From positions 1,728,001-1,792,000 of the forward strand of contig CBDCJH010000002.1 of assembly GCA_965217775.1 (NCBI GenBank): a DNA stretch of 64,000 nucleotides, in the 5' to 3' direction. The notes under the pieces were generated by a model. It ran no database searches, had not been told where the DNA came from, and saw only the letters and a list, made by a program, of their open reading frames with translations. Of this stretch, positions 104-24,427 are shown in pieces. The translations under genes and the position numbers were made by a program. The stretch's first letter is position 1, and each line of letters starts with the position of its first letter. This stretch comes from Acidobacteriota bacterium. GTDB taxonomy: Bacteria > Acidobacteriota > UBA6911 > RPQK01 > JAJDTT01.

Positions 104-523
<420 letters not shown>

Positions 524-1374: not shown

Positions 1375-1389
1375 AAAAGGGATTGCACC

Positions 1390-2736: not shown

Positions 2737-2764
2737 GTGTAATTTTTCCTTCCAAGGAGGTTCC

Positions 2765-4458: not shown

Positions 4459-4509
4459 TACGTGCCCGACAACAGATGTCCCAGCCGCCGATGAACCCGG
4501 GACGGGGAA

Positions 4510-4944
4510 TCAGAAAGGAATGTCGTCGTCGGTGATCTCCACTTCCTGCGAGGGTTGAGACACTTGTGAGGGCTTGGAGTCCTGCCGGTCCGAGGGTGGG
4601 CCGCCCCCCATTTCGTCTGTCCGTGAGCCCAACATCTGCATGTTTCGAGCCACTATTTCAGTGGTGCGCCTTCGATTCCCGTCCCGATCCTCCCACTCCC
4701 GGGTCTGGATCTGCCCCTCGATGAAAACGAGACGTCCCTTGCGCAGATACCTCTCGCAGATCTCCGCCAGCCTTCTCCAGACGACGATCTGGTGCCACTC
4801 GGTACGCCGCTGCCGCTCCCCATTCTTATCGGTCCAGGACTCGTCGGTCGCCAGCGAGAAGTTGGCCACCGGAGTACCCGACGTCGTGTATCGAACCTCC
4901 GGGTCCCGACCCAGCCTGCCCACCAGGATTGCCTTATTGACCAT
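4510..4944 (-). CDS. ssb: Single-stranded DNA-binding protein
   Basis: [20 protein letters not shown]-terminus; acidic DDDIPF tail. Confidence 0.97.
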
Positions 4945-5077
4945 TTTCAACCTCCTTCCTCATTCCTCCTCTTCACTATAACGTTCGACCCCGAAAAAAA
5001 CGCATCTCGACCTGGAACGGCATTGCCCCGCTTGATGTTCGACCGATTGTTCAGGGCTCGGCGGGCGGTGAGTCCGT

Positions 5078-6229: not shown

Positions 6230-6235
6230 GGCCCG

Positions 6236-6241
6236 ATTATA
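6236..6241 (-). promoter_or_regulatory. Consensus -10 box (TATAAT) 6 nt upstream of the htrA-like ATG; probable leaderless promoter
   Basis: Minus strand reads TATAAT-CGGGCC-ATG; no Shine-Dalgarno sequence. Confidence 0.6.
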
Positions 6242-7417: not shown

Positions 7418-8112
7418 GGATGGCGCAAATGCCGGGTACGAGAAGTGATCCTGGCATCCGAAGGGCGCAGATAGTTCGCCTTCAAGTGCCGTTCGCCACC
7501 GGTCTCACCCGCCATGTGCCTCCGATGGGCCAGAAGGCAGAGCTCCGGCAGGATGCAATTGTTTGAACTGGCGACTCGGGACCGGGGGTGAAGAGCCTGG
7601 ATGGTGGTGCGGTACTGCTGGGCGCCGTCACCGACGAAGAGATGATCTCCAGGAGGGACTTGCCTCAAGAACTCCGCCGGGGGCGCCACCTGTTCTTCAA
7701 CCTCAATGCGGATGCCCGATTCCGAGTCGGTTCGATAGGCGGCTCCATAGATCTGTTGCCTGCGGGCGTCGATCATGGGAACGATCCGGCTCCGGGTCCA
7801 GCGGAACCGGAAAGCGAGAGCTTCGAGGGTGGACAGCCCCACCGCCGGCCGATCCAGACTCTGGGCAAAGGCCTTGACCGTGGCCAGCCCGATTCGCAGT
7901 CCGGTGAATGAGCCCGGACCCGCGGCCACGGCAAAACACCCCAATTGGGTGCGTTTCACCCGGAGGCCGTCAAGCAGAAACTCCGCGCACGAGAGCACTT
8001 CTTCCGAATAGCGCAGTGGCGCCTTCAACATGACCTGACCGATCACTTCGGCGTTTCGGCTCAAGGCAATCCCGCCGCTGTTGGTGGCCGTATCGAGGGC
8101 CAGGATGTACAT
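7414..8112 (-). CDS. tsaB: tRNA threonylcarbamoyladenosine biosynthesis protein TsaB
   Basis: ILALDTAT, GPGSFTGLRIG, DARR motifs. Confidence 0.95.
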   Translation of the reverse strand: MYILALDTATNSGGIALSRNAEVIGQVMLKAPLRYSEEVLSCAEFLLDGLRVKRTQLGCFAVAAGPGSFTGLRIGLATVKAFAQSLDRPAVGLSTLEALAFRFRWTRSRIVPMIDARRQQIYGAAYRTDSESGIRIEVEEQVAPPAEFLRQVPPGDHLFVGDGAQQYRTTIQALHPRSRVASSNNCILPELCLLAHRRHMAGETGGERHLKANYLRPSDARITSRTRHLRHP

Positions 8113-8209
8113 GGCAAACACTCCCGGAACCGGGCCGCCGGCCTGCGTTCCGAAGCCCCGGACCTGGCGAAAATCCCGGAGTTTATTTCACACGTTGCTG
8201 CTAAAGTAA

Positions 8210-10714: not shown

Positions 10715-10787
10715 TTCCGGCCTCGCAACCCCAGGTCTATCGCTATTCGACTGAGTCACCCCCGGCAGATTTGGTGGAGACCGCAAA

Positions 10788-12389
10788 TTGAAGCGATCCA
10801 CGCTCTTCGGAATGGCATTGCTGGCGCTCCCGCTGTTCGTGTCGCTGGGCACCTCCTCCATCTGGGACTCGAACGAAGCCTTTTACGTTCAGACCCCACG
10901 CGAAATGGTGGAGCACGGGGATTGGATCGTTCCCCGCTTCAACGGACAACCCCGGGTGAACAAACCCCCGCTCAGCTATTGGCTGGTCGCCGCAGCCTAC
11001 TCGGCATTCGGGGTCTCCGTCTTCTGGGAACGGCTGCTTCTGGCCCTCTTGGCCTACGCCTCCGTGTGGGCCGTCTTTCTCTCGGGACGGATTCTGATCT
11101 CGGAAAGGGCGGCTTTGCTGGCGTCCGTCCTGTTCGCCACCACCTTCCGCTTCCAGATCCTGGCTCGCAGGCTGCTCATCGACATCCTGCTCCTGTTCTG
11201 TATCCTTGCGGCGCTGACCGCTTTCCTCTACTGGTGGAAGCGGCGGCGTGATTCAAGCCTGATCCTGGCGGCTCTTTTTCTGGGTCTGGGAGTGTTGGCC
11301 AAAGGACCGGTCATCCTTTTGCCCGCGCTGATAATCGCCGCCTACGCACTTCTTTCGGTGCCGTCCGGCCAGCTTCGCCAAGCTCCCTGGGCCCGTTCTC
11401 TCCTGGTGTTCTGCCTGGTCTCGAGTTCCTGGTATCTGCTGCTGGGGTTCACCCAAGGCTGGGAGTCGGTGTTCGACTTCCTCTGGAAAGAGAATCTGGG
11501 CCGGTTCACCCACGTGGACTTCGGCCCCCAGCGGGGGCTTCAATACTATCCCCTGGTTTTCCTGGCTGATTATCTTCCCTGGTCGATCCTCCTTCTCGGC
11601 GCTCTGGCCGGCAGGTGGTCCGCTCGTCACTACCCCGACCGCAGTCTCTCCATCCTCCTCGCGCTCTGGCTGGGGATCTTTCTCGTCTTCTTCTCCCTTT
11701 CTCACAACAAGCAGGAGTACTATATCCTCCCCGTCTATCCGGTGGCTTCCCTGTGGCTGGCCGCGTATCTGGACCGGGAGACTTTGCCCGGCTGGAGCCG
11801 GTGGCTGATTTGTGGAGTCCTGATCGCCGCCACCGCGTCCCTGACCCTTCTGGCCTATTCCCTGTTCCGGGACGTGGCTGGGTGGTGGCTTCCCGTTCCT
11901 TTCCTGGCGGCGGTTGCATTGGCCGTGGCGGGATCACGAATTCGCCTGGCGGCCTGGACTTTGACCCTCTTCTACGCGTTGGCTTTCCACGTCTACCTTC
12001 AACCTCTGGAAGAGTACCGTCCGGTCCGTCACCTGGCGGAGATCATCCGCTCCAGAAGCCCGTCCGCAGATCCCGTGACCGCCGGCTACTATCGATTGTC
12101 GACTCCAAGCCTTGCCTACTATCTGAATTCGCCTGTTCTGGAGCTCGGAACGCCGCAACAGGCCCTGGAGGCGCTGCGATCCCCTCGGCCCGTCTACTTG
12201 ATCATGGCCGCGGAGGACTACACCGAGCTGAAGAGGGAAATGGGTCCAACCCTGAAAATTGAGGGAGTCCGACCCAAACTGTATACTACCGTTTCCACGC
12301 TGGTCGAAGGATGGAAACTTGGCCGACTCGACACTCGCCCCGAGGCTTGGACCCGCTCCGTCTACCTGGTCAGCAACCAGGGTGGATGA
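10788..12389 (+). CDS. ArnT-like GT-C (family 39) polyprenyl-phosphate sugar transferase
   Basis: WDSNEAFY...REM...GDWIVP...KPPLSYW, LAKGPV, K..YYILP; many TM helices. Confidence 0.85.
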   Translation: MKRSTLFGMALLALPLFVSLGTSSIWDSNEAFYVQTPREMVEHGDWIVPRFNGQPRVNKPPLSYWLVAAAYSAFGVSVFWERLLLALLAYASVWAVFLSGRILISERAALLASVLFATTFRFQILARRLLIDILLLFCILAALTAFLYWWKRRRDSSLILAALFLGLGVLAKGPVILLPALIIAAYALLSVPSGQLRQAPWARSLLVFCLVSSSWYLLLGFTQGWESVFDFLWKENLGRFTHVDFGPQRGLQYYPLVFLADYLPWSILLLGALAGRWSARHYPDRSLSILLALWLGIFLVFFSLSHNKQEYYILPVYPVASLWLAAYLDRETLPGWSRWLICGVLIAATASLTLLAYSLFRDVAGWWLPVPFLAAVALAVAGSRIRLAAWTLTLFYALAFHVYLQPLEEYRPVRHLAEIIRSRSPSADPVTAGYYRLSTPSLAYYLNSPVLELGTPQQALEALRSPRPVYLIMAAEDYTELKREMGPTLKIEGVRPKLYTTVSTLVEGWKLGRLDTRPEAWTRSVYLVSNQGG

Positions 12390-13380
12390 GCCCCCTCCAA
12401 GACTGTCCATCATCGTTCCCGTCTACAACGAGAGACCCAATCTGGAGATCCTGCACCAGGATTTGACGAGGGTTCTCCAAGGACTCGATCCCGAATACGA
12501 GATTCTCTTCATCGACGACGGAAGCAGCGACGGAGGAAGTCGAATCCTGGCCGATCTCGCCGCACGGGACCATCATGTCCTGGTGCTGCAATTCGCTCGC
12601 AACTTCGGACAGACGGCAGCCCTGTCGGCGGGTTTCGACCATGCCCGGGGCGAGATCATCATTCCCATGGATGCCGATCTCCAGAACGATCCCGCCGATA
12701 TTCCGCAGATCCTGGACAAACTCGACGAGGGGTACGATGTGGTCAGTTGCTGGAGAAAGGATCGGCAGGACCCGTGGCTGACCCGGATTCTCCCCTCTCG
12801 GGCCGCCAACCGAATCATCAGCTGGATCAGCGGCGTGCGTCTCCGCGACTACGGATGCACCCTCAAGGGTTACCGGAGCGAAATCCTGCAACATATCCGT
12901 CTCTATGGAGAAATGCACCGGTTCATTCCAGTCTATGCGAGCTGGACGGGAGCCAGAGTGACCGAGATCCCGGTCCGCCATCACCCCCGCCGGCACGGAC
13001 GATCCAAGTACGGCCTGCTGCGGACCCTCAAGGTTCCTCTGGATCTGATGACCGTCAAGTTTCTGGTCAGCTATTCCACCAAGCCCATGTATCTTTTTGG
13101 GGGATTGGGGCTGGTCTCGATCCTCTTCGGATGGCTGCTCAGCGCGCTCGCCCTCTACCAGAAGTTTCTCCAGGATGTGAAGGTCCACCGCAATCCCCTC
13201 CTCCTGCTTGCGGTGTTCCTCTGCATCGTGGGAATTCAATTCATTCTGTTCGGCTTGGTGGCGGAGCTCATCATCCGGACGTACCACGAGTCGCAGGGTA
13301 AGCCGACCTACATTCTCAGTCGGACGATCCGAAAGGAACAGGAGTCCCGATCGCACTCGGGCGGCTCGGTCCCGGAGTAA
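12382..13380 (+). CDS. GT2 glycosyltransferase, ArnC/Dpm1-like
   Basis: SIIVPVYNE, DDGSSD, RNFGQTAA, MDADLQNDP, two C-terminal TMs; overlaps the ArnT-like stop. Confidence 0.9.
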   Translation: MDEPPPRLSIIVPVYNERPNLEILHQDLTRVLQGLDPEYEILFIDDGSSDGGSRILADLAARDHHVLVLQFARNFGQTAALSAGFDHARGEIIIPMDADLQNDPADIPQILDKLDEGYDVVSCWRKDRQDPWLTRILPSRAANRIISWISGVRLRDYGCTLKGYRSEILQHIRLYGEMHRFIPVYASWTGARVTEIPVRHHPRRHGRSKYGLLRTLKVPLDLMTVKFLVSYSTKPMYLFGGLGLVSILFGWLLSALALYQKFLQDVKVHRNPLLLLAVFLCIVGIQFILFGLVAELIIRTYHESQGKPTYILSRTIRKEQESRSHSGGSVPE

Positions 13381-13384: not shown

Positions 13385-14842
13385 ATGCAGGTTCTGGATT
13401 GGCTGCTGACGAACACGACGACGGTCTCGGGTTGGATCTGGGGTCCACCCATGATCGTGCTGCTCTTTGGCACCGGGATCCTCCTGACCGGAATGACCCG
13501 TTTCGTTCAGATTCGTCATCTTGTCAGCTCTGTCCGGCAGATCTTGAAGGGACCCAAGGCGGAGACCCGCGACCACCGGCGTTCCCAAGGGGACATCACG
13601 CCGTTTCAGGCCCTGATGACCGCGTTGTCGGCGACCGTAGGCAACGGAAACATCGCCGGCGTCGCGACGGCCATTGCGGCCGGCGGTCCGGGAGCCGCCT
13701 TCTGGATGTGGATCACCGCCGTCTTCGGAATGGCAACCAAGTACTCGGAAGCGGTTCTGGCCATTCTCTTCCGCCGGCGCATGCGGGACGGAACCATGGC
13801 CGGCGGGCCCATGTACTACTGTCGAGACGGCGTCAGGGGGCAACTGGGTTTCGTCCTGGGGGGCATCTTTGCCGTGTGCGGTGCGGCGACCGCCCTTTTT
13901 GGAACGGGAAACATGTTCCAGTCCCAGTCCATGGCCACGGCGGTCCGGGAGCAGTTTGGAACTCCTCAATGGGTGACCGGCCTGATCATGAGCCTGCTGG
14001 TGGGACTGGTGATCATCGGCGGCATACGCCGGATCGGAGCTGTCGCCGAGCGCCTGGTTCCGGTCATGATCATTTTCTATTTTGCCGGCGCCCTGCTGGT
14101 GATCGTCAGCAACATCTCGCTGGTTCCGGACGCCTTCCGACTGATCGTCGTGTCCGCCTTCAGTCCTCAGGCCGTGTTTGGAGGAGGCGTGGGCATCGGA
14201 GTTCAGCAGGCGATGCGATTCGGAGTGGCTCGCGGCGTCCTCTCCAATGAGTCGGGCCTGGGAAGCGCGGCCATCGCCCATGGGGCTGCCCGGACTCGAT
14301 ACCCCGTGGTCCAGGGCGGGATCGCCATGATGGGCACCTTCATCGACACCATCATCGTCTGCACGCTCACGGCTCTGGCCATAACCGTCTCCGGCGCCTA
14401 CCGCAGTGCTGCCTTCCTGGTGGAGGACGGTCTCCTGGGGGCCGATCTCACGGTGCACGCGTTCAGCGTAGGCATGCCGGATTGGACCGGTGGTTGGGGA
14501 GGCCTGGTCGTCGCCTTCGCTTCCCTGGTCTTCGGTTTCACCACGCTGATCGGTTGGAGCTACTACGGTCAGATCTGCTGCGAGTATCTCTTCGGTCTGA
14601 AAGTCGTCAAACCGTACCGGATCCTCTTCGTGGTGCTCCTGTTCGCGGGAGCGCTGCTCACCGGGCGCTATTCCTCGATCATCACCAACGTGGGCGACAT
14701 CTGTAACGCCGCAATGGCGTTCCCCAATCTCATCGCGCTGATCTTCCTGAGCCGCCGGGTCGCGGACGTCACCCGGCAGACCTACGACGCGGGAGATCCA
14801 TACGCGGCTCGCGTGCCCCGGCTGCCCGATCCTATCGGTTAG
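13385..14842 (+). CDS. Alanine/glycine:cation symporter (AGCS family)
   Basis: ATVGNGNIAGVATAI..GGPGAAFWMW, ARGVLSNESGLGSA. Confidence 0.93.
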   Translation: MQVLDWLLTNTTTVSGWIWGPPMIVLLFGTGILLTGMTRFVQIRHLVSSVRQILKGPKAETRDHRRSQGDITPFQALMTALSATVGNGNIAGVATAIAAGGPGAAFWMWITAVFGMATKYSEAVLAILFRRRMRDGTMAGGPMYYCRDGVRGQLGFVLGGIFAVCGAATALFGTGNMFQSQSMATAVREQFGTPQWVTGLIMSLLVGLVIIGGIRRIGAVAERLVPVMIIFYFAGALLVIVSNISLVPDAFRLIVVSAFSPQAVFGGGVGIGVQQAMRFGVARGVLSNESGLGSAAIAHGAARTRYPVVQGGIAMMGTFIDTIIVCTLTALAITVSGAYRSAAFLVEDGLLGADLTVHAFSVGMPDWTGGWGGLVVAFASLVFGFTTLIGWSYYGQICCEYLFGLKVVKPYRILFVVLLFAGALLTGRYSSIITNVGDICNAAMAFPNLIALIFLSRRVADVTRQTYDAGDPYAARVPRLPDPIG

Positions 14843-14892
14843 TTTTCGGAAGGTGGATACACGGGGAGTATCCGGATTCGAGCGACGTCACG

Positions 14893-15831
14893 TCACGGGG
14901 AAACGGACCGGTCGGACGATCGGGGCGGGAGTCCCGCCGCCTCTACGATTTCGGCCACCAACTCTTCCTGCCGATAGGCCATGATGTGGACTCCGCTGAT
15001 TCCGGGAATCTCCCGCGCCTCGCGGATGATCTCGACGCAGATCTGCATGCCCTCGCGGCGCTGACGGTTGCCGGGAACTCCCCTGAGACGGCGGATCACC
15101 TCATCCGGGATCACCACGCCGGGAATGTTGTTCCGGATCCATTGCGCCGCCTTGGCCGAGCGGAGGGGTCCGACGCCCAGCAGAAAGAAGACCTTCTCGT
15201 GCAAACCCAACTCCCCGACGGACTTCATGAAACGCCGGAGTCTGGGCAGGTCGAAACAGTACTGGCTCTGGATGAAGTCCGCCCCCGCTTCGATCTTCTT
15301 CATCAGCCGGAACGGACGGTAATCGAAGGGAGGAACGAAAGGATTGCTGGCGGCCCCCAGAAAAATCCGGGGGTTGGATTCCAGCTTCCTGCCGCTCAGG
15401 AAGCGGCCACCGTCCCGGAGCAGGCGGGCCGTTCTCAACAGAGTCATGCAATCCAGATCGAAGACCGGCTTGGCGTCCGGATGGTCGCCCACGCCCACGC
15501 CGTCGCCCGTCAGGCACAACACGTTCCGGATCCCCAGGGCCGCAGCTCCCAGCAGGTCTCCCTGAATCGCGATCCGGTTCCGGTCCCGGCAGGCGACCTG
15601 AAGCACCGGCTCGTAGCCTGCCTTCACCAGCAGGGAACAGACGGCCACGCTGGACATGTGGACATGGGCCCCGGAAGCATCGGTGGCGTTGATGGCATCA
15701 CATACCGGAGCCAGGACCAGCGCCCTTTCGCAGACCGTATCGGGATCCGCGGTGTCGGGGGAATTGATCTCGGCGGTGACGGCGAATCCGCCCGCGCGAA
15801 GCACCCGCTCCAGCCTGGAGCCAGACTTCAT
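14893..15831 (-). CDS. metF: Methylenetetrahydrofolate reductase
   Basis: CRDRNRIAIQGDLLGA, LCLTGD, KKIEAGADFIQSQ; start taken at MKSGSRLE. Confidence 0.9.
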   Translation of the reverse strand: MKSGSRLERVLRAGGFAVTAEINSPDTADPDTVCERALVLAPVCDAINATDASGAHVHMSSVAVCSLLVKAGYEPVLQVACRDRNRIAIQGDLLGAAALGIRNVLCLTGDGVGVGDHPDAKPVFDLDCMTLLRTARLLRDGGRFLSGRKLESNPRIFLGAASNPFVPPFDYRPFRLMKKIEAGADFIQSQYCFDLPRLRRFMKSVGELGLHEKVFFLLGVGPLRSAKAAQWIRNNIPGVVIPDEVIRRLRGVPGNRQRREGMQICVEIIREAREIPGISGVHIMAYRQEELVAEIVEAAGLPPRSSDRSVSP

Positions 15832-15836
15832 GGGGG

Positions 15837-16289
15837 TCACTGCTTCCAATGGGACTTCGCCTTTCCGGCATCCGAGAAGTGGTTGACCCAGGCGGACGAT
15901 CCCTGGAGGTCGTGACTCAGCGGCGGAAGCACGTGCAGGATCTCGGATCCGAAGTGGGGCATCTTTCCGGATCGTTCCCAAGCCTGCACCCAGACGCACG
16001 GCATTTCGGGAACCACCTCGCAATGTCCGTTCGGCCGCACCCCTCCGCAGGGTCCGTTGCGGAGATTCTTGGGGCAGGTCATGGGACAGGTCATCCCGGT
16101 GCTGTGCAGGACGCACTGTCCGCACATGCGGCAGTCGAACACGGCGCCTTTGGTCAATCGCTCCGCCGGAATCAGGAGCCGTTCGATCCGGCTCCCGGGT
16201 TTGAGCGACGACCGGAACCAACCAAGAATCTTAAGACTGATCAGATAGATCGACTCTAATACTTGAGGATGGTTCTGAAGGAATCTCAC
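15837..16289 (-). CDS. metV: MetV-like Cys-rich (Fe-S) MTHFR partner subunit
   Basis: FDCRMCGQC...CPMTCPKNLRNGPCGG...CEV...CVW motif directly upstream of metF. Confidence 0.85.
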   Translation of the reverse strand: MRFLQNHPQVLESIYLISLKILGWFRSSLKPGSRIERLLIPAERLTKGAVFDCRMCGQCVLHSTGMTCPMTCPKNLRNGPCGGVRPNGHCEVVPEMPCVWVQAWERSGKMPHFGSEILHVLPPLSHDLQGSSAWVNHFSDAGKAKSHWKQ

Positions 16290-16308
16290 GGTTTTCCCCT
16301 GCGCTCGT

Positions 16309-17946
16309 TCAACCTGTAGGACCCGAATCCAACACCGCCGGCATGGCCTGGAACAGACATCCTTCCACAAAAATATCGAAGAAATCTTCGGTCGTCTCCA
16401 ACTCGACGTGTTCAATACGCCTGACCATCTCTTCCAGGCGGCGCCTGAGGGTCCGGCTGGTCAACATGAGCGTGGCTCCCTCAAGCGCGCTGTTTCCCAC
16501 CTTGGCGACGCGGTCTTGGGGAAGCGGCGGGATAAACCCGATGGACATGGCGTTGTCCACGTTGACGTAGTTGGCGAAGCCTCCCGCCAGATAGAGCCGC
16601 TTGAGCTTGACCGGCGAGATCCCGTACTTCCTGAGAACGATCCACTGACCCGAGTAATTGGCCGCCTTCGCCTGTGCCAGGGCGCTGATGTCGGCTCGGG
16701 ACAAGAAAATCCCGCGTTCGCCCGGAATGCTGAACCGGTCCAGCCCTCCCGCAAGAACGCCGAGATAGTTCATGTCGTCTACCCGGAGCAACTCTGCCAG
16801 GAGGTCGATCAAGCCCGAACCGCAGATCCCCTCCGGCGTGGCTCCACCGATGGTCCTCCAGATCACCTCTCCGTTCCGGAGTTCGACCGACTCGATGGCG
16901 CCGTCGTAACCGGGCATGCCGAAGGTGATCTCACCACCCTCGAATGCGGGTCCTGCCGGGCAGGAGGCGGCCATCATGCCATGGCGGTTGCCGACCACCA
17001 CTTCCGTGTTGGTTCCCACATCGACCAACATGACCGCATCTTCTTCCTCATCCATGCCGACGGCCAAAAGGTCGGCAGCCACGTCGGCGCCGACGTGACA
17101 ACCGATCAAAGGCCCGCCGTAGACATTGGCGTCGGGATGGACTCTCAGTCCCAGATCCCGAGCCGGGAAATTCAGGAGGGTGTCGGCTCTGTCACCCCGT
17201 TCCATTTCCAGTTGGGTGATGGACTGGTACGGTCTTTCGCCGATGGTCTGGATGTCGAGGCCGAAAAACAGATCTCGCATGGCGGCGTTGCCCACGATGA
17301 CGACTTCGTAGATCTGGCGCCGCGGCACCCCTGTCATCCGGCTCAACTCACGGATCTCGTAGTTGAGTCCGGCAATCACCGAGTTCCGGAGCTCCCCCCG
17401 ATAGGGTCCGCCGTCATAGGAAATCCGGCGCATGATGTCGCTGCCGCCGAATCTCTGCGGGTTTTCGAACGAACCGGTGTGCAGGACCGCTCCGCTTCCG
17501 AGATCCACCAGATTCAGGGCGACGGTCGTCGTCCCCAGGTCTACGGCAAGGCCGTAGATCCCGCCCCGATGGGAGTCGATGATATTGCCATCATAGACGA
17601 CGTTGCCTCCCTGAAGCCGTGTCATGGGCTCGATGGGAGCCTGGCGCCGAACGGTTTGGGTCAGGATCTTGGGACGGCGATGCAGCAGGGCAAATTCGAT
17701 GGTTGCGTCGGCATCCAGGACCCGAGCTTGACAGGCAAGCCGATAGTCGTTGCGGAGGAACTCTTCGGCTTTCGAGGCGGAGGTCAGGGCTTCCCCACCC
17801 CGGACGATCCGGACGATGCACTCGTGACACTCTCCGCTACGGCGACAGGAGGTCGGGACCCGCACCTGAAGGTCGTCGGCATAGTCGAAAATGGTCCTGT
17901 CTGGAACCAGGTCCAGCTTGCGATTACCGTAGTGGAGGGGGGACAT
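16309..17946 (-). CDS. ASKHA-family reductive activator of corrinoid proteins (RACo/AcsV-like) with N-terminal 2Fe-2S domain
   Basis: C-x4-C-x2-C...RLACQA ferredoxin, DLGTTT, DVGTNTE, AGPAFEG, GICGSGLID, LAGGFA. Confidence 0.92.
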   Translation of the reverse strand: MSPLHYGNRKLDLVPDRTIFDYADDLQVRVPTSCRRSGECHECIVRIVRGGEALTSASKAEEFLRNDYRLACQARVLDADATIEFALLHRRPKILTQTVRRQAPIEPMTRLQGGNVVYDGNIIDSHRGGIYGLAVDLGTTTVALNLVDLGSGAVLHTGSFENPQRFGGSDIMRRISYDGGPYRGELRNSVIAGLNYEIRELSRMTGVPRRQIYEVVIVGNAAMRDLFFGLDIQTIGERPYQSITQLEMERGDRADTLLNFPARDLGLRVHPDANVYGGPLIGCHVGADVAADLLAVGMDEEEDAVMLVDVGTNTEVVVGNRHGMMAASCPAGPAFEGGEITFGMPGYDGAIESVELRNGEVIWRTIGGATPEGICGSGLIDLLAELLRVDDMNYLGVLAGGLDRFSIPGERGIFLSRADISALAQAKAANYSGQWIVLRKYGISPVKLKRLYLAGGFANYVNVDNAMSIGFIPPLPQDRVAKVGNSALEGATLMLTSRTLRRRLEEMVRRIEHVELETTEDFFDIFVEGCLFQAMPAVLDSGPTG

Positions 17947-18034
17947 GACAGCGCAACACCCTGTTCCAGCGCTCCGCGGGCGCGATTGCCGGTTCCTCTA
18001 ACGAAAGGGGCCGCAGGATCCGGTCAGCCGACAG

Positions 18035-18050
18035 CCTACGGCGCAGACTC
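18035..18050 (-). mobile_element. Left-end remnant of MITE family B abutting CTAG, which contains the stop codon of the 88-aa gene
   Basis: Minus strand CTAG-GAGTCTGCGCCGTAGG versus CTAG-GAGTCTGCGCGGTAGG at 22432. Confidence 0.6.
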
Positions 18051-18317
18051 CTAGACTTCCCAGGCATCCCGATAATTCAGATCGTCACTTCCGGTACAGA
18101 GAGGCAACCCTTCGGAACCGGAACGCCTGGACTGGTTTCGGCACCCGAAACGGGCGGTGCAGCAATCCCGGGCATTCTTGTAGGGACACCGCCACTTGGA
18201 TACGAGATTGGCAGTCTCGCCGATCTGTTGGTAGATCTCCCAGAGGCGATCCATGCTGGCCTTGAGTTTCGCCTTGTCGACAGGTTGGAAATTCCCAGGG
18301 ACGTCTGTTCGTGGCAC
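18051..18317 (-). CDS. Small Cys-rich hypothetical protein in the methyltransferase cluster
   Basis: Co-oriented and fills the gap between corrinoid protein and RACo; RCPYKNARDCCTARFGCRNQ...CTG. Confidence 0.7.
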   Translation of the reverse strand: MPRTDVPGNFQPVDKAKLKASMDRLWEIYQQIGETANLVSKWRCPYKNARDCCTARFGCRNQSRRSGSEGLPLCTGSDDLNYRDAWEV

Positions 18318-18340
18318 TGCAAGTCCGTCGAGGATCGGTC

Positions 18341-19108
18341 CTAGGAGGATTCGGAGACAGCCTCCTGAGGTATTTCCTGCCCGATACCCAGGAGTTCCTT
18401 GGCCTTGTCCACACAGTCAATGGCGTCCTTGCCATAGCGGTCGGCCCCCATGTCGTCCGCGAATTCCTGAGTCACCGGAGCTCCGCCCACCATGGTGCTG
18501 ACCACATCTCTCAGACCGGCATCCTCCAAGGCCTGGATGGTTCGTCCCATGTTGGGCATGGTCGTCGTCAGCAGGGCCGACATTCCGATGATCTGGGGTT
18601 CGTATTCGAACACCGAATCGACAAACTCGTCCGGCTTGGTATCGACACCCAGATCGTGCACGACGAAACCGGCTCCCCGGAGCATCATGATGCACAGGTT
18701 TTTCCCGATATCGTGGAGGTCACCCTTGACCGTTCCCATGACCACGGTGCCCATGGGTGGAATATCGGAAGCGGATAGTATGGGTTCGATGTGCGCCATC
18801 CCCGCTTTCATGGCGCGGGCTGAAATCAGAACCTCGGGAACGAAAATGATGTTGTCCCGGAATTTGATCCCCACCAGCGCCATGCCGGCAATCAGTCCGT
18901 CATCCAACACCGTATTGGCGGCGTAATCGGAGTCCAGGGCCTCCCTCGTGAGGCGGTCGACCTCGTGCTGGTTGCCTATGATCAAGGCATAGCTGATGTC
19001 TTGCATCAAAGGATCGGCGTTTCGGAAGAGCGACTTGATGTGCTCTCGCTCGTGCCGCCGCGCCACGTGGCGGAGTTCCCTGGTCAGGCCCTCATTGATA
19101 TTCGACAT
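18341..19108 (-). CDS. Cobalamin-binding corrinoid protein (MtaC/MetH cap + B12-binding domains)
   Basis: FVPEVLISARAMKAG cap, GTVKGDLHDIGKN (DxHxxG), SALLTTT, MVGGAPV. Confidence 0.93.
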   Translation of the reverse strand: MSNINEGLTRELRHVARRHEREHIKSLFRNADPLMQDISYALIIGNQHEVDRLTREALDSDYAANTVLDDGLIAGMALVGIKFRDNIIFVPEVLISARAMKAGMAHIEPILSASDIPPMGTVVMGTVKGDLHDIGKNLCIMMLRGAGFVVHDLGVDTKPDEFVDSVFEYEPQIIGMSALLTTTMPNMGRTIQALEDAGLRDVVSTMVGGAPVTQEFADDMGADRYGKDAIDCVDKAKELLGIGQEIPQEAVSESS

Positions 19109-19224
19109 ACTGGAAAGACCACCTGGATCACCGAATTTCAAAGACGCGTAGACGAACTAAGGGAGAAATTAAACCTTTTCGGGTCGAGGTTTGTCAAACC
19201 AGCCGGCGTGCGGTACAGGGCCCT

Positions 19225-20271
19225 TCAGACCCCGGTCAACCGGCCATCCCGCCAAGCCTGAATGTAGTTCATGCAGAAATCGTCCCGGCCCAAAAGCATG
19301 TCCCGGGCCAAGCCGACTCGTTCCGAATCCAGGTCCAGGGCGAATACGTCCCGCACGCGATTCTGGACGGGATCCATGATGGCGGCGTCGATGCCGGATT
19401 CCAGGCTCAGGTGAATGAAGGTCGCGTTGATGAGCTTCCGATTGGGAAGGCCGAAGGAAACGTTGCTCAACCCGCCGGTGACGTGCACGTCATTGCCGAA
19501 GATTCGCCGGACCTCCTCGACGGCATCCAGAAAATGACGCCCGAATTCGGGCGAAACCGATATCGGGAAGACGAGACAGTCGATGTACACGTCGTCCAGA
19601 GGAAATCCCCGTCTCACGACCGCCTCCATGACCTGTTCCACGTTGGAGACGCGGTCGTCCGAGCTCTCCGGCATTCCCTCCTTTCCGGCGGCCGTCACAA
19701 TCATGCGGGCATCGTTTTCCTGGACCAGGTCCAGGGTTTCCAGTCGCTCCAGAGCGACGGAATTGACCAGAGGACGGTCCGATCTGCGGGTGTGGGCAAC
19801 CAACCCCGCGGCGATGATCTCCGCGTTGGAAGAATCGATGCTGAGAGGCAGCACCGTCATTTCCTGGACTCTCTCCACCAGCCAGGTCATGGCTCGCTTC
19901 TGAATCTTGATGTCGTAGGAGATCTCGTCGACGTTCAGATCGAGGAAATGGGCGCCGGCGGCTTCCTGGCGGCGGACCTCGAATTCGATGTAGGCGGTCC
20001 CCTCCGCCTCCTCCACGGGATCTCCGCTGATCCCCTTCCGGACAGCAATCATGAAATGCTTGATCTGACCTTGCTCGTAGGGCTGCGTCTTCTTGAAACT
20101 CTCGGGCACCCGAAGGTACCGGCGCTCACCGGGACTGGGATCGAAGAAGACGGCCTCTGCTCCGTCGGGCGCCGTCTCAGTCCGCTTGCCATTGCGCAAG
20201 ACGATGCGAGTCGTATGAATGTTCTCGCCGATGATGATCAGACCGCTGGGGTCATGGACGAGCTTTGACAT
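19225..20271 (-). CDS. Methyltetrahydrofolate:corrinoid methyltransferase (AcsE-like pterin-binding domain)
   Basis: IIIGENIH, LDLNVD, LSIDSS, GGLSNVSFGLP, AAIMDP; start taken at MSKLVHD. Confidence 0.88.
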   Translation of the reverse strand: MSKLVHDPSGLIIIGENIHTTRIVLRNGKRTETAPDGAEAVFFDPSPGERRYLRVPESFKKTQPYEQGQIKHFMIAVRKGISGDPVEEAEGTAYIEFEVRRQEAAGAHFLDLNVDEISYDIKIQKRAMTWLVERVQEMTVLPLSIDSSNAEIIAAGLVAHTRRSDRPLVNSVALERLETLDLVQENDARMIVTAAGKEGMPESSDDRVSNVEQVMEAVVRRGFPLDDVYIDCLVFPISVSPEFGRHFLDAVEEVRRIFGNDVHVTGGLSNVSFGLPNRKLINATFIHLSLESGIDAAIMDPVQNRVRDVFALDLDSERVGLARDMLLGRDDFCMNYIQAWRDGRLTGV

Positions 20272-20291
20272 GGAACACCCGGTTGACCGCT

Positions 20292-21329
20292 TCAGGCGTA
20301 ATGATCCCGGCACCAGTCCTTGACCGCCCGCGGAATCTCGATGAGGTTTTCCAGTTTGGTCGCCAGGGGAATGGCACACTCTGGGGAAATCATATCGACG
20401 CCCGCCGCCATGCATTCGTTGACGGCCGCTCGGACCTCCTCCGGCCCTCGGCTATAGAGGAGTTCCGGGTTGTTCAGATTCCCCACCAGGCGGATCCGCC
20501 CGGAAGCGATCTTCATGGCTTCGGCAGGGTTGTTCTTGGAATCGAAGTGGAAGCAGGCCATCCCGGACTGCGCGATGTAGTCGAGGCGGTCCAGCGTCTG
20601 GCCGCAGATATGGAGAATGAGGGGACACGGGATTCGCTCCCGCATCTCCTTGTGGATCTCCAACAGGAACCTGCGGTAGTACTCACCGCTCACCAGATCG
20701 CCGGTGGCATGGTCCGGAAAGGTGAGGGCGTCGGCGCCCGCTTCGATCTGGGCGAGGGAAAACGCAACCGAGATTTCCTTGAGCCGATCCAGGCAGAGCT
20801 TGGTCATCCCCGGATCATCGATGCTCATGAGCAGAAACTTCTCCACGCCGAAGACGTGATAGGCCAGCGTCCAAGGCCCCATGGCTTTGCCGATGACGGC
20901 GACCTCGTCTCCATATTCCTTTTTCAGGATACGCAGCGCGTCCAGGACGCAGACGTTGTCCGGATGGGTCAGAAAATCCTTCGGCATATGGATGTCGTCC
21001 GGCCCCGACCAGATCGGGTTGTTCATCCGTACCGTGGGCCAGTTGTCCTTGATCTCCCACTGCATGTCACATCCCAGGGCGGAAGACTCCTGGATGATGG
21101 TGAAGACCGGCATGATGCAGTCGAAGCCCAACTGGGTGTATCCCGTTGCCGCCAAGCGCGCGTTGAGCTCGGCGTCACGGCACGCGTCCGGAAACGGAGC
21201 GTCCACCATGTCCATGAGTTCCACGGTGGCGATATTGGTCGGATTGCAGACCGGGGGCCGATCCACCGGCTTGCCGGCCAGCGCGTTCATCACTCGCTCT
21301 CTGGGGGTCATGGTCTCCACGAATGGCAT
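20292..21329 (-). CDS. MtaA/CmuA-family (URO-D fold) Zn-dependent methylcobamide:thiol methyltransferase
   Basis: MTPRERVMNALAGKPVDRPPV N-terminus, GPWTLA, Zn motif LHICG...PECAIP. Confidence 0.88.
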   Translation of the reverse strand: MPFVETMTPRERVMNALAGKPVDRPPVCNPTNIATVELMDMVDAPFPDACRDAELNARLAATGYTQLGFDCIMPVFTIIQESSALGCDMQWEIKDNWPTVRMNNPIWSGPDDIHMPKDFLTHPDNVCVLDALRILKKEYGDEVAVIGKAMGPWTLAYHVFGVEKFLLMSIDDPGMTKLCLDRLKEISVAFSLAQIEAGADALTFPDHATGDLVSGEYYRRFLLEIHKEMRERIPCPLILHICGQTLDRLDYIAQSGMACFHFDSKNNPAEAMKIASGRIRLVGNLNNPELLYSRGPEEVRAAVNECMAAGVDMISPECAIPLATKLENLIEIPRAVKDWCRDHYA

Positions 21330-21347
21330 TCCATCTGCTCCTTGGGA

Positions 21348-22022
21348 TCAGAGAGGGCTGAAGCCCGCGGTTCCGGTGGTGAGCTGACCTCTTTGGGCCG
21401 AACTCTCCAACATGTTCTCCACGGCGCTGATGTTGCGGGAGAATGGGAACAGGAGCCGGACCAACGGCTCGTGACGGTGTCCACAGTTGAAGGAGACACC
21501 GAGGTTTCCCGCCTGCTCCATCTCGCCGTACTTTCGAAAGCCCATGGTAATGGCACGCAGGCGAAAAGGAGCGTTACGCGCCTCGCCCTGAGCCGAGACC
21601 TGGTAGACCCAACGATTCTCGGAGTGGTGAGGCGTGAGCTTCAAAGTCAATGGACTGCGCGTATCCCGAAGCACCATCTCTCCCGTGGGATGAGAAAAAT
21701 TCGGATCCTTTTCCACCGCCTGCGGCATCAGAAACTTGAGCGGTCTCGAATGAAGTACTCCACAGGGAAATCGAACCTGGTTCCTGCTACCCTCCACCGC
21801 AACCAAGCCACCCAAATTGCAAAGTTGGTCTCGGATTCTCTCGATCCGGTCCTCGACCCCCGCCTTCTTGCTGTAGGTCCAGACGGTCAAAAGGCCGTCT
21901 TTCTCGTAGAGACCGATAGTGATGTCGTGGAAATGCGGGTCCATGGAAACCAGTTCGACGCAGCGCCCGTAGCGCTCGATCATCTCCTCCACCTGGGAAA
22001 GCTGACCTTCCCTACCCTTCAT
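21348..22022 (-). CDS. Hypothetical protein with duplicated FxCGxxH motif
   Basis: ATGA overlap with upstream gene, co-oriented in the cluster; motifs FPCGVLH and FNCGHRH. Confidence 0.75.
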   Translation of the reverse strand: MKGREGQLSQVEEMIERYGRCVELVSMDPHFHDITIGLYEKDGLLTVWTYSKKAGVEDRIERIRDQLCNLGGLVAVEGSRNQVRFPCGVLHSRPLKFLMPQAVEKDPNFSHPTGEMVLRDTRSPLTLKLTPHHSENRWVYQVSAQGEARNAPFRLRAITMGFRKYGEMEQAGNLGVSFNCGHRHEPLVRLLFPFSRNISAVENMLESSAQRGQLTTGTAGFSPL

Positions 22023-22396
22023 GGCGAATTGCTCCCGGATGTTGAAGGGACCGGATCGTCACCGATCCAGCGCTCAAGCGCGCCGGGCCGCTCATCCCGC
22101 TGACCGGCACGATGGAGCCGGCAAATTCGGGCCGCCAAGTCTTCAGGGAGTCCATGATTGAATCGTCCCGCCCAAGCTTGGGCGAGCTGGCGTGGATCTC
22201 CCGAGTCCCGACCCTGATCCACCCACTCCCAACCCTCCAAATAAGCATCGCTCCCCATGCTCCCTTCGAACATGGCGACGGCGTCCACCGCTTCCTGGAA
22301 CCGGTGGTCCAGCGGTTCCGAAACTCGATCGCCACCGGATTCGACCTGGACCTGGACGGGGATCTCTTTCCAGTAGAGGACTCTGATATTGGCCAC
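22019..22396 (-). CDS. 'Virulence factor' (Virulence_fact-type) family small protein associated with B12 methyltransferase loci
   Basis: LYWKEIPVQV...RFQEAVDAVAM...DAYLEGW pattern; GTG start at 22396. Confidence 0.75.
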   Translation of the reverse strand: MANIRVLYWKEIPVQVQVESGGDRVSEPLDHRFQEAVDAVAMFEGSMGSDAYLEGWEWVDQGRDSGDPRQLAQAWAGRFNHGLPEDLAARICRLHRAGQRDERPGALERWIGDDPVPSTSGSNSP

Positions 22397-22435
22397 GATT
22401 TGGGCTCCCACAAGAGGCAATCCAGCCTGGACTAG

Positions 22436-22594
22436 GAGTCTGCGCGGTAGGAATGATCGTAGCGAGAAAGCGGGGAATCGAGGCCAGATTTTCTCGATTT
22501 TGAGGCGCATAGTCGTTCTATTCGCCGAGAAATCGGGGAAATATGGACCGATTCTACCGCTTTCGCAGTAGATCAATTTCTGCCGCGCAGGCTC
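22436..22594. mobile_element. MITE family B, full-length (159 bp), CTAG target duplication
   Basis: Imperfect TIRs GAGTCTGCGCGGTAGGAA / TTTCTGCCGCGCAGGCTC (15/18), CTAG at 22432-22435 and 22595-22598, nested internal palindrome, no transposase. Confidence 0.85.
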
Positions 22595-22800
22595 CTAGCG
22601 TCAGAACCGGATCTACGGGACGTCTCCCCTGCCAAGTCGGTCTCGGCGGCCATTTCTCGGGGGCGGAGGTGACCTTCTCCGTCCCACGGACAAGTCAGGC
22701 TACACCAGCGTGGACACCCTGTAAAGCCCGCCGGCCCCGGGTACTCCCGGCCCTGTGGCTGGCGCCGGCCGGGCTTTTCACCGGCTCCGATACACCTTTC

Positions 22801-22830
22801 TTGACTTGGTCCGAGCCACTTCCGCAAAAT
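22801..22830 (+). promoter_or_regulatory. Putative sigma70 promoter TTGACT-N18-CAAAAT giving a leaderless xdhC transcript
   Basis: -10 ends 6 nt before ATG 22837; no SD. Confidence 0.5.
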
Positions 22831-22836
22831 GTGGTC

Positions 22837-23694
22837 ATGGATGTCTACGAGGAGATTGTCCGGCTCCGGCGCGAAGGACGTTCGGGCGCAGTGGCCACCA
22901 TCGTCCGGCGAATTGGGAGCACTCCCCGGAAAGACCACGCCAAGATGCTGGTCCGCCAGGATGGAAGCTTTGTGGGCACCGTCGGCGGCGGCTGTGTCGA
23001 AGCCGAAGTCTGGCGCCATGCGAACCAGGTCATGGAATCGGGCCGGGCCGCACTGGTCAAATACAAATTGACCCAGGAAGATACGGAAAACGAGGGCCTG
23101 GTCTGCGGCGGTACCGTGGAGATCTTCATCGAGCCCGTGATTCCCGAGCCCACGTTGATTCTGATGGGAGCCGGACACTTGGGACAGGCCATCGCCGCGG
23201 CTGCCGACAAGGTCGATTTTCAGGTCGTCGTCCTGGATGACCGGGAGGCCTTCGCCAATCGCCAGCGATTTCCCCGCGCCCGGGAAGTGATCGTAGACTC
23301 CTTCCGGACGGGTCTCTCCCAGACATCGGTGACGGTCAACACCTTCATCCTGGTCATCACTCGGGGTCACAGCCATGACCACGCCGCACTGGAAAAGGCG
23401 ATTCAGACCGAGGCCCGATACGTGGGACTGGTGGGCAGTCGCCGAAAGATCCAGTTGATCGTCGACAACCTTCTGCAACAGGGATATCCGCCCGACCTGT
23501 TCGAGAACCTCTACGCTCCCATTGGACTGGCCATCGGATCCGAGACTCCGGAAGAGATCGCCATCAGCGTCGTCGGTGAACTGATCGCCATCCGCAAGGG
23601 CGTGCATGAGCGGAACCGCAAACAACTTTTCGTTCGGAAAATCCTGGAGCGGGCAAGAACAAAGCAAGCTCCAGCCCAGGTTGCCGCCGGCTAA
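22837..23694 (+). CDS. xdhC: XdhC/CoxI family molybdenum cofactor chaperone
   Basis: GSTPR, GTVGGGCVEAE, GLVCGG, GAGHLG, YVGLVGSRRK, APIGLAIGSETPEEIAIS. Confidence 0.9.
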   Translation: MDVYEEIVRLRREGRSGAVATIVRRIGSTPRKDHAKMLVRQDGSFVGTVGGGCVEAEVWRHANQVMESGRAALVKYKLTQEDTENEGLVCGGTVEIFIEPVIPEPTLILMGAGHLGQAIAAAADKVDFQVVVLDDREAFANRQRFPRAREVIVDSFRTGLSQTSVTVNTFILVITRGHSHDHAALEKAIQTEARYVGLVGSRRKIQLIVDNLLQQGYPPDLFENLYAPIGLAIGSETPEEIAISVVGELIAIRKGVHERNRKQLFVRKILERARTKQAPAQVAAG

Positions 23695-23743
23695 CCGGAA
23701 AAATCCGACCGATCCCCAATCCGGATTCGGATCGAAGTACCGG

Positions 23744-24427
23744 CTACGCTGAATCGAGTTCCCCTGCCAGTAAGCGGAGGATCTCTTCGTCCATCGCGCC
23801 CTTCCTGACGATCCGGGGCGGCTTCCCGCACAGATCCAAGACGGTGGAAGGCACCGATCCGGGAAGCGGTCCCGCGTCCAAGAAAAGGTCGACTTTCCGG
23901 CCGAAGAGGTCTTCCATCCGTGACCTGGATTCCGGAGCCGGCTGCCCCGCCAGATTGGCGCTGGTGGAGACGATGGGAGCGGCGAAGCGTTCCAGCCAGA
24001 GTCGGAGGAAAGGCAGGCTGGGGTACCGCAACCCGACCTTGCCCTGGTTTCCGGTGATGGCCGCCGGGAGCGAAGGCGCCGCCGGAACCAGGAAGGTGAC
24101 GGGCCCAGGCCAGAGCCGGGCCGCCAGCCGGTGGAACTGCCGAGGTAACCGCTGGGACAGTTTTCCGGCTGATTTCAGATCCGGAATCAGGAGCAACAGA
24201 CCCTTGTCCGCGGCCCGCCGCTTCAGTTGCAGAATCCTCTCGAGGGCGGGCTCGCAAAAGCCATGGCACCCGAATCCGTATACGGTATCCGTGGGATAGA
24301 GGATGACTTCCCCTCGATCGAGCGCCCGGGACGCCGCCTCGAGGACGCCCGGGTCGGGCCGATCCGGATCGACAGCCAGCCTTCGTCTCCAACCTCTCTC
24401 AGCGTTCTCCATCTGCTCCCGTTCCAT
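23744..24427 (-). CDS. tsaC: L-threonylcarbamoyladenylate synthase (TsaC/SUA5 YrdC domain)
   Basis: YPTDTVYG, WPGPVT, STSANLAG, PSTVLD. Confidence 0.92.
   Translation of the reverse strand: MEREQMENAERGWRRRLAVDPDRPDPGVLEAASRALDRGEVILYPTDTVYGFGCHGFCEPALERILQLKRRAADKGLLLLIPDLKSAGKLSQRLPRQFHRLAARLWPGPVTFLVPAAPSLPAAITGNQGKVGLRYPSLPFLRLWLERFAAPIVSTSANLAGQPAPESRSRMEDLFGRKVDLFLDAGPLPGSVPSTVLDLCGKPPRIVRKGAMDEEILRLLAGELDSA

Follow-up and report, generated by a model that had tools for sequence, protein, structure and literature searches.

Which methyl groups pass through a bacterial cluster that joins an MtaA-like zinc methyltransferase to corrinoid and tetrahydrofolate (THF) enzymes, and in which direction do they move? 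The question is raised by nine genes at positions 14893–22396 of a 64,000-nucleotide (nt) stretch of marine Acidobacteriota DNA (assembly GCA_965217775.1, contig CBDCJH010000002.1, positions 1,728,001–1,792,000), which was analysed as a whole and is hereafter called the window. With modest confidence, we propose that the cluster belongs to a modular corrinoid methyl-transfer hub, composed of a core of corrinoid protein (CP) and RACo activase, a folate port, a homocysteine port and a third, MtaA-like port that acts mainly on the donor side. The nine open reading frames (ORFs) are co-oriented on the minus strand with intergenic gaps of −4 to 104 nt and, from the start of the operon, are as follows:

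22019–22396, minus strand: PF13769 (Virulence_fact) protein of 125 amino acids (aa), first gene of the operon (Pfam E = 5.6e-16)
21348–22022, minus strand: 224-aa protein (unk224) without a Pfam or NCBIfam family
20292–21329, minus strand: corrinoid methyltransferase of the MtaA/CmuA family (URO-D superfamily) with a His240-Cys242-Cys318 zinc site (Pfam URO-D, E = 1.3e-67)
19225–20271, minus strand: methyl-THF:corrinoid methyltransferase (MeTr), an MtgD/AcsE-like pterin-binding protein (Pterin_bind, E = 5.6e-21)
18341–19141, minus strand: CP with B12 cap and B12-binding domain, MtgC/MtbC-like (PF02607, B12-binding_2, E = 5.9e-20; PF02310, B12-binding, E = 5e-25)
18051–18317, minus strand: 88-aa protein without a family, with four invariant cysteines
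16309–17946, minus strand: RACo/RamA-type ATP-dependent reductive activase with an N-terminal [2Fe-2S] ferredoxin domain (Fer2, E = 8e-9; Raco_middle, E = 1.7e-38; RACo_C_ter, E = 3e-66)
15837–16415, minus strand: MetV, small Cys-rich subunit of the MetVF methylene-THF reductase (PF12225/DUF5981, E = 1.1e-26)
14893–15828, minus strand: MetF, methylene-THF reductase (MTHFR, E = 3.4e-30)

An initial annotation, made from the sequence of the window, had placed nine co-oriented genes at these same positions, and its family assignments agree with Pfam, which is clear for seven of the nine. It had also noted that neither MttB nor a homocysteine-binding domain is encoded inside the cluster, and we found neither there.

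The enzyme on which the question turns, the product of 20292–21329, scores above the curated cut-off of NCBIfam model TIGR01463 mtaA_cmuA (269.5 versus 235.4 bits) and that of PRK06252 (262.3 versus 244 bits), and below the equivalog cut-offs of MtaA_Meth (227 versus 400 bits) and MtbA (199.7 versus 600 bits). Its nearest solved structure is Methanosarcina MtaA (PDB 4ay7, E = 1.4e-48), followed by a uroporphyrinogen decarboxylase (E = 3.5e-13). The H-x-C...C motif aligns with the zinc motif of 4ay7, and all 33 aligned homologues share H240, C242 and C318 (83% mean column identity), which confirms the MtaA-like zinc site of the initial annotation. A zinc site of the kind found in O-demethylase donor-side methyltransferases (MT1s), with a carboxylate or missing Cys ligands, is ruled out by the retention of both Cys ligands; no O-demethylase or CdmB chain occurs among the 10 PDB sequences that match at E ≤ 1e-3. 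In this superfamily, His-Cys-Cys zinc ligands are described as marking S/Se methyltransferases, with O-demethylases replacing one or both Cys (PMC10418091), and the chloromethane MT1 CdmB is described as binding no zinc (PMC13222342). In a tblastn search of plasmids with the methyltransferase, the 25 of 38 records listed were all HemE-like proteins or URO-D proteins without a name, at ≤29% identity.

The same gene set recurs well beyond this genome. Scanning one genome per species, we identified relatives of the methyltransferase in 237 stretches and kept the best 80 loci, which by record title comprise 21 Acidobacteriota and 59 Dehalococcoidia, Chloroflexota or SAR202, many of them titled SAR202 or carrying marine- or sponge-type names of metagenome-assembled genomes. 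With components counted within the examined stretches at E ≤ 1e-8 and at least 35% identity, and with 16 of the 80 loci shortened by contig ends, the 224-aa gene was found in 79 loci, the CP in 74, the 88-aa gene in 73, the PF13769 gene in 65, RACo in 55, MeTr in 48, MetV in 28 and MetF in 24. The 64 loci with full 10-kb flanks gave 63 for the 224-aa gene, 61 each for the CP and the 88-aa gene, 45 for RACo and 41 for MeTr. The comparison of synteny across genomes that the initial annotation had proposed thus finds the set in two phyla with its core genes kept in most loci, and the arrangement is not due to chance. Outside the genus of the window, the methyltransferase is the best-conserved member (median identity 76%), followed by the CP (71%), RACo (64%), MeTr (57%) and the 224-aa and 88-aa proteins (56% each). 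Chloroflexota loci carry in addition a gene of ~1 kb for a PF02574 homocysteine S-methyltransferase between the PF13769 gene and the 224-aa gene; this in-cluster gene is present in 59 of the 80 loci, namely 58 of the 59 Chloroflexota loci and one Vicinamibacterales locus.

The second protein of the putative third port is the 224-aa product. Neither it nor the 88-aa protein has a Pfam or NCBIfam family, and Pfam at E ≤ 10 gave only chance-level rows. Among 8000 scored candidates, 909 homologues of the 224-aa protein were identified at E ≤ 1e-5; no Pfam domain was found in the best 120 of these 909, and those that are named are hypothetical proteins of SAR202, Chloroflexi or Dehalococcoidia. Their alignment displays an internal repeat, F-x-C-G-x-x-H, at residues 85–91 and 178–184 and an invariant C-terminal R211-G212-Q213; the Cys and His residues are not invariant. 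With an AlphaFold2 (AF2) model of the protein (predicted local distance difference test (pLDDT) 87.4, predicted template-modelling score 0.83), Foldseek returned 0 PDB matches at E ≤ 1e-3 and the best VIA match (Z 6.3) covered residues 114–199 only, an uninformative outcome that is no proof of a new fold; the Protein Atlas held no usable match. A model of the complex between methyltransferase and 224-aa protein scored 0.90 (0.90, 0.89 and 0.90 in three runs) versus 0.01 for the best of 3 controls. For calibration, 58 of 80 solved complexes and 2 of 110 mismatched pairs attained this mark; because the alignments used here were our own, these counts apply only approximately. The runs share at least 75% of contacts, with a partner pLDDT of at least 87. 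The modelled interface involves residues 36–45, 65–68, 93–99, 287–296 and 318–330 of the methyltransferase, including the zinc ligand C318, and residues 9–27, 33–37, 49–53 and 209–215 of the 224-aa protein, including the invariant G19, L24, S51 and R211–Q213. The 224-aa protein is a predicted obligate partner of the zinc methyltransferase, with physical binding supported by the model. A 471-aa URO-D plus 224-aa 'fusion', encountered on one contig in a profile search of longer proteins, was rejected as a sequencing artefact, its junction and C-terminus reading as a frameshift.

We next considered what methyl metabolism the rest of the genome encodes (6.43 Mb in two contigs; completeness 97.9%, contamination 7.5%). 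None of the nine cluster proteins has a second copy (tblastn, E ≤ 1e-3), and a genome-wide search for PF02219 gave 1 match, so that the cluster MetF is the sole MTHFR. Genome-wide, the MetH activation domain (PF02965) was not found, MttB (PF06253) had no match and CdhD was not found, the AcsB and CODH families themselves lying outside the search. Because the nine genes are single copy, MetF is the only MTHFR and no MetH, MttB or CdhD was found, all methyl-THF metabolism of the organism that can be recognised by sequence appears to be encoded in this operon. There are three stand-alone PF02574 genes. One of them, 173 kb from the cluster and among unrelated neighbours, encodes a protein that shares 59% identity with the in-cluster enzyme of SAR202 and that in NCBIfam scores best against PRK08645 (YitJ-type) and PRK07534 (Bhmt type). 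Since the genome has neither a MetH marker nor another MTHFR, the cluster together with this remote enzyme is likely to be the B12-dependent methionine synthase of the organism. The initial annotation had taken the route to be self-contained and had treated a homocysteine-binding module elsewhere in the genome as an argument against its proposal. Self-containment does not hold, given a homocysteine methyltransferase 173 kb away whose orthologues lie in the cluster in 59 of 80 loci, and the objection is borne out in part by the same stand-alone enzyme. Methionine might also be made in another way: five PF01717 ORFs (L007–L011, on the genome's contig C2) are short and core-MetE-like, scoring 75–127 bits, all below the NCBIfam cut-offs for methionine synthases. 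Their function could be folate-independent methionine synthesis or another kind of zinc-thiol methyl transfer, and the CP might supply their methyl group.

The distribution of these enzymes among related families points to ports that can be separated. Of 401 genomes sampled across the phylum, 15 encode the methyltransferase: the genome of the window, 7 of 7 others in its own family (f1) and 7 of 7 in a second family of the same order (f5). MetH and PF02574 were tallied in 61 sampled genomes of the order. The MetH marker is present in 0 of 10 other f1 genomes, as in the genome of the window, versus 9 of 10 in f5. Eight of the nine genomes of one f5 genus (g6) have their only PF02574 match in a frame of ~1240 aa, that is, in MetH itself, and the ninth (G076) has a weak 38% match; in the tenth f5 genome (G425, genus g239) the match is stand-alone, at 42%. 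Within the genus of the window, the split-type homocysteine methyltransferase has a 90–95% orthologue. A separate genome, G136, carries an 81% orthologue and neither the zinc methyltransferase nor the MetH marker. One unpublished genome (G049; MetH marker present, methyltransferase absent) is included in the order- and phylum-level tallies, and its omission changes no conclusion. From this distribution of MetH, stand-alone PF02574 and methyltransferase, the homocysteine port and the MtaA-like port appear to be separable modules on one corrinoid hub, and the MtaA-like port would have a role of its own, independent of methionine synthesis. The methyltransferase is 72–85% identical between the two phyla; because of this identity and its restriction within Acidobacteriota to two families (15 of 401 genomes), horizontal transfer among marine or sponge-associated lineages is suggested.

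The direction of the third port was assessed in five complete SAR202 genomes that have the cluster without MeTr. None of the five contains a MeTr orthologue at E ≤ 1e-10, an MtrH or an MttB, and three of them encode a one-piece MetH. The only Pterin_bind protein of G435 and G436 is ~300 aa long, matches at 260–270 bits and is FolP-like. Because the MtaA-like enzyme is thus the only recognisable methylator of the CP in these two genomes, the comparison suggests that the zinc methyltransferase loads the corrinoid from a methylated sulfur-type donor, that is, on the donor side. The absence of an MT1 asserted in the initial annotation holds for MttB, which the cluster lacks, but the role of donor-side MT1 may fall to the URO-D-family enzyme. 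The methyl-sulfur exchange proposed in the same annotation remains the leading idea, in keeping with the zinc site and with a CP shared with MeTr and MetVF.

Under the hub proposal, the RACo-type activase would keep the CP as Co(I), probably assisted by the four-Cys 88-aa protein. At the folate port, MeTr would exchange methyl groups between methyl-THF (CH3-THF) and the CP, while MetVF, with the PF13769 protein, would interconvert CH3-THF and methylene-THF (CH2-THF). At the homocysteine port, the MtgE-like PF02574 enzyme, remote in this genome and in-cluster in SAR202, would take the methyl group from CH3-Co(III)-CP to form methionine. At the third port, the His-Cys-Cys zinc methyltransferase bound to the 224-aa protein would serve as MT1: a methylated soft-heteroatom compound would give up its methyl group to Co(I)-CP, and the group could then go to homocysteine or, via MeTr and MetVF, to the one-carbon pool. 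Candidate donors are methanethiol, dimethyl sulfide (DMS), methylmercaptopropionate, a sulfonium compound, methyl selenide and a methyl halide. We infer the direction and substrate class of this port from the comparisons above, and its pairing with the 224-aa protein from the complex model.

By analogy with Mtr and MetH, moving a methyl group from a thioether or thiol onto THF costs roughly 30 kJ/mol, and moving it from such a donor to homocysteine is roughly neutral. Because of this difference, methyl groups from a methylthio donor would most plausibly end up in methionine; THF could additionally be supplied by sulfonium or halide donors. A more specific version of the proposal, which we regard as speculative, is that the zinc methyltransferase and the 224-aa protein together form the long-sought cobalamin-dependent enzyme with which aerobic marine bacteria demethylate methylthio compounds such as DMS, methanethiol or methylmercaptopropionate. 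The CP methyl group would then be passed directly to homocysteine in a folate-independent methionine synthesis; where MeTr and MetVF are present, THF would receive it too and it would be oxidised. In 1993 a cobalamin-dependent 'DMS methyltransferase' was proposed for aerobes, and it was described as unidentified as of 2019 (PMC6548844).

Several observations weigh against the hub proposal as a whole or in part. The donor-side placement is weak, since it draws on two of five genomes and on families that were not found, and an unrecognised donor enzyme is possible. Transfer from a methylthio donor to THF would be unfavourable unless strongly pulled, and MtaA itself runs in the acceptor direction. 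Without the hub, methionine could still come from the five core-MetE-like ORFs, and coexistence with MetH in f5 means that methionine synthesis is not a universal role of the hub. DUF1638 (PF07796), which is required in Phaeobacter, has no match in the genome at E ≤ 1. The roles given to the cluster genes are predictions from sequence and models, and the complex model gives model confidence, not binding.

Three other accounts of the locus have to be set beside the proposed hub, and the first concerns the direction of the third port. If it were an acceptor-side port, methyl groups would run from CH2-THF through MetVF to CH3-THF and through MeTr to the CP, and the zinc enzyme with the 224-aa protein would methylate a small thiol or selenol (sulfide, methanethiol, 3-mercaptopropionate or selenide), like MtaA acting on coenzyme M, for detoxification or to release a volatile product. 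This direction is thermodynamically downhill, MetVF and MeTr lie in the same operon in the window, and the closest solved relative, MtaA, is a methylcobamide:thiol methyltransferase. His-Cys-Cys is moreover the type of site that activates thiolates, and ClMlp2 is reported to have methylated selenide from methylcobalamin in vitro (PMC10418091). We nevertheless hold an acceptor-side port to be unlikely: in two of the five SAR202 genomes no enzyme that could load the CP was found if both zinc enzymes are acceptors, no conserved genes for thiol biosynthesis or export lie beside the cluster, and the Proteobacterial hub with the same accessory set is described as catabolic (PMC12478193).

A catabolic function is the basis of another account, in which the cluster is purely a four-component demethylase, with the zinc enzyme and its partner as MT1, the CP, MeTr as the second methyltransferase (MT2), and RACo; MetVF would oxidise CH3-THF, methionine would come from the core-MetE-like enzymes, of which the genome has five ORFs, and the remote PF02574 enzyme would be unrelated (for example, dependent on S-methylmethionine or betaine). 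Family f5, which holds the cluster beside MetH and in most genomes has no stand-alone PF02574 gene, fits such a demethylase, as does the layout of MT1, CP, MT2 and activating enzyme (AE), which is canonical in bacteria (PMC13222342; PMC10418091), and the strong induction of MetF2 on methylated osmolytes in Ruegeria (PMC12478193). It sits poorly with the PF02574 orthologue inside the cluster in 59 of 80 loci, with the missing MetH marker in the genome of the window and its family, and with the 32 of 80 loci in which MeTr does not lie within the examined stretch; the sole MTHFR being the cluster MetF would moreover imply a biosynthetic duty too, if CH3-THF is needed. A purely catabolic role therefore seems improbable to us. 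Finally, the zinc enzyme and the 224-aa protein might methylate homocysteine or another amino-acid thiol, as a second, non-homologous methionine-synthase module, or the 224-aa protein might be a regulator or protein substrate that gates the active site. In favour are a Pfam clan common to the URO-D and MetE families, a modelled interface that takes in the face of the zinc site including C318, and a methyltransferase that is better conserved than the PF02574 enzyme (median identity 76% versus 58%). We consider this account very improbable, as the module would duplicate the in-cluster PF02574 enzyme in 59 of 80 loci, the CP would be without a donor in genomes lacking the pterin enzyme, and the Cys and His residues of the partner vary.

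MeTr matches PRK07535 at 203 bits, below the cut-off of 259, and the best NCBIfam match of the CP is MtgC_2 (196 bits, below the cut-off of 370). The CP probably starts at the ATG at 19108. For MetV, the start is probably the GTG at 16289, 20 nt past the RACo stop, and not 16415, because homologues align only from ORF residues 31–42 and a GGGGA motif precedes the GTG. C44, C53, C59 and C74 of the 88-aa protein, in the pattern C-x8-C-x5-C-x14-C, are invariant in 27 of 27 sequences, and the protein is a probable small metal-binding accessory encoded between the CP and RACo genes; it has no similarity to the 112-aa hypothetical protein encoded between MeTr and ASKHA in Sinorhizobium meliloti. The AF2 model of the PF13769 protein has a pLDDT of 87.9, its best structural match (Z 3.3) is uninformative and the Protein Atlas returned only PF13769 clusters; its gene associations identify it as a putative accessory of corrinoid/MetVF hubs.

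Additional URO-D and corrinoid genes were observed in several genomes. Seven SAR202 loci (the L082–L094 group; for example, L082:8919–9920 and 10001–11002) contain two tandem copies of the zinc methyltransferase at ~70% identity. The copies aligned (L082 and L083) retain His-Cys-Cys and differ in a segment that matches residues 70–79 of the window enzyme, a difference that may reflect substrate diversification. Two Acidobacteriota loci (L029:16357–18356 and L081:16045–18036) carry, 1–2 kb downstream of RACo, a second module composed of a divergent URO-D protein (72–75 bits) and a second CP, and L033 also has a second corrinoid gene; the second URO-D and corrinoid modules suggest that the hub accepts additional donor enzymes. 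The genome of the window itself encodes a divergent third URO-D-family ORF of 476 aa (C2:2658323–2659753, also L003:850–2280; Pfam 93 bits, TIGR01463 51 bits), which is followed by an SMP-30/gluconolactonase gene and has no adjoining corrinoid gene. It could be an orphan MT1 that draws on the CP of the window.

Several SAR202 loci carry restriction-modification, AbiJ, GmrSD, Uma2 and DUF433 genes between the 224-aa and methyltransferase genes. Defence- or toxin–antitoxin-type genes (a DNA methylase with an Mrr domain, AbiJ, GmrSD, Uma2, DUF433 and DUF4268) at L043:6827–9962 and at L060:5789–9890 and 11314–12541 occupy the gap before the methyltransferase gene and the gap after it, and insertions into the operon seem to recur in these loci. 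Within the window the flanks are housekeeping genes, with MutS, glycosyltransferases and a Na:alanine symporter on one side and XdhC, Sua5 and a SpoU methylase on the other, and positions 14000–24000 gave no Rfam match at E ≤ 1 and hence no hint of a riboswitch. One further feature lies in the gap that separates the start of the operon from the divergent XdhC gene:

22432–22599, no strand assigned: dispersed repeat of ~167 nt upstream of the operon, in the promoter region (82 blastn matches in the genome)

Copies of the repeat occur on both strands, and the matches printed are 93–100% identical. Contigs from three RNA-library runs (X1, X2 and X5) bridge it, skipping 163–165 nt, and the summed contig depth over it is 200–8700 versus ~10–50 elsewhere. 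It may be an element resembling a miniature inverted-repeat transposable element or a multi-copy small RNA, and it does not belong to the enzyme system. RNA-library contigs from two studies, some labelled sponge metagenome, map to all nine genes, which establishes presence in an RNA library and neither proves transcription nor reveals transcript ends or expression level. Single contigs of 6.7 and 8.0 kb from runs X5 and X6 span nearly the whole cluster with ~8% of letters differing, which points to related strains.

If the third port uses DMS, methanethiol or a related compound, it would represent an enzyme class that sulfur-cycle microbiology has postulated and never found, and the abundant SAR202 of the deep ocean and sponge-associated Acidobacteriota would link methyl-sulfur turnover to methionine synthesis through vitamin B12. 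Whatever the substrate, the known B12 demand of these lineages would be widened. A split methionine-synthase hub would furthermore be a modular platform with exchangeable donor enzymes, and three conserved uncharacterised proteins (the 224-aa, 88-aa and PF13769 proteins) are defined as testable parts of it.

Among known systems, the closest in composition is the split cobalamin-dependent methionine synthase or MtgBCDE hub of rhizobial and marine Proteobacteria (Phaeobacter inhibens, Ruegeria pomeroyi and S. meliloti). According to Price et al., the MetH of Phaeobacter is split into three parts and is accompanied by a RamA-like activase and DUF1638 (PMC5764234). For Ruegeria, Mausz et al. reported that MtgC and MtgD are genetically required and serve both methionine synthesis, with MtgE, and glycine betaine demethylation, with the MttB-family MtgB; that MetF2, encoded beside MtgD, is the protein most strongly induced on methylated osmolytes; and that MtgE is related to a predicted Bhmt of S. 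meliloti (PMC12478193). The two hubs share a separate CP, a pterin methyltransferase, a RamA/RACo activase, a MetVF-type MetF(2) and a stand-alone PF02574 homocysteine methyltransferase, and both have carriers without MetH. The S. meliloti pSymB and Azoarcus pAZKH records, reached by tblastn with PF13769, list a CP, DUF1638, a 'virulence factor', MetV, MetF, MeTr and ASKHA; their order PF13769-MetV-MetF-MeTr-ASKHA involves the same accessory set as the PF13769, MetVF, MeTr, RACo and CP of the window. Neighbouring genes are an MttB-family gene in S. meliloti and glycine-betaine transporter genes in Azoarcus. The donor enzyme of the MtgBCDE hub is MtgB, acting on glycine betaine, whereas the window has an MtaA/CmuA zinc enzyme with a 224-aa protein instead. 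DUF1638 belongs to the MtgBCDE hub and was not found here, where the four-Cys 88-aa protein is present, either as a replacement or with DUF1638 simply absent alongside. The hosts also differ: Proteobacteria versus Acidobacteriota and Chloroflexota.

The zinc enzyme resembles MtaA, MtbA and MtsA of methanogens (PDB 4ay7/4ay8) in its URO-D TIM-barrel, its H-x-C...C zinc motif and its cognate CP. It differs from them in scoring below the equivalog cut-offs, in its bacterial hosts without a methanogenesis context and in its ties to a folate methyltransferase, a homocysteine methyltransferase and a constant partner protein. Type 1 mlp clusters, described in a preprint by Kountz and Balskus, comprise two or three distinct Mlps without a THF methyltransferase, occur in obligate anaerobes, mostly Firmicutes, and have a proposed role in methyl-S/methyl-Se metabolism (PMC10418091). 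They are recognised by Mlp2 plus Mlp3 without a THF methyltransferase, whereas the window has one MtaA-like gene and a MeTr; unlike these clusters, ours has one methyltransferase (two in some SAR202 loci), MeTr with MetVF, a homocysteine methyltransferase and the 224-aa partner. Bacterial MT1-CP-MT2-AE demethylases (Odm/Vdm/Mto, and Cdm and Cmu for chloromethane) likewise have four components, with a URO-D-superfamily MT1 and a pterin-binding MT2 (PMC13222342; PMC10418091). Unlike the O-demethylase MT1s and CdmB, however, the cluster enzyme keeps both Cys zinc ligands. CmuA is a methyltransferase–corrinoid fusion, whereas the methyltransferase and the CP of the cluster are encoded by separate genes.

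A full-text literature search gave no description of the cluster; the main text of PMC12478193 does not mention SAR202, Chloroflexi, Acidobacteria or MtaA, and that of PMC10418091 does not mention Chloroflexi or Acidobacteria, the supplementary tables of both, which may list such clusters, lying outside the search. The initial annotation had named the cluster the best candidate in the window for an undescribed system, a suggestion that has to be narrowed, since the hub has already been described (PMC5764234; PMC12478193) while the MtaA-like port and its partner protein have not. The undescribed component is the zinc methyltransferase with its 224-aa partner, and most of the cluster is a known kind of system.

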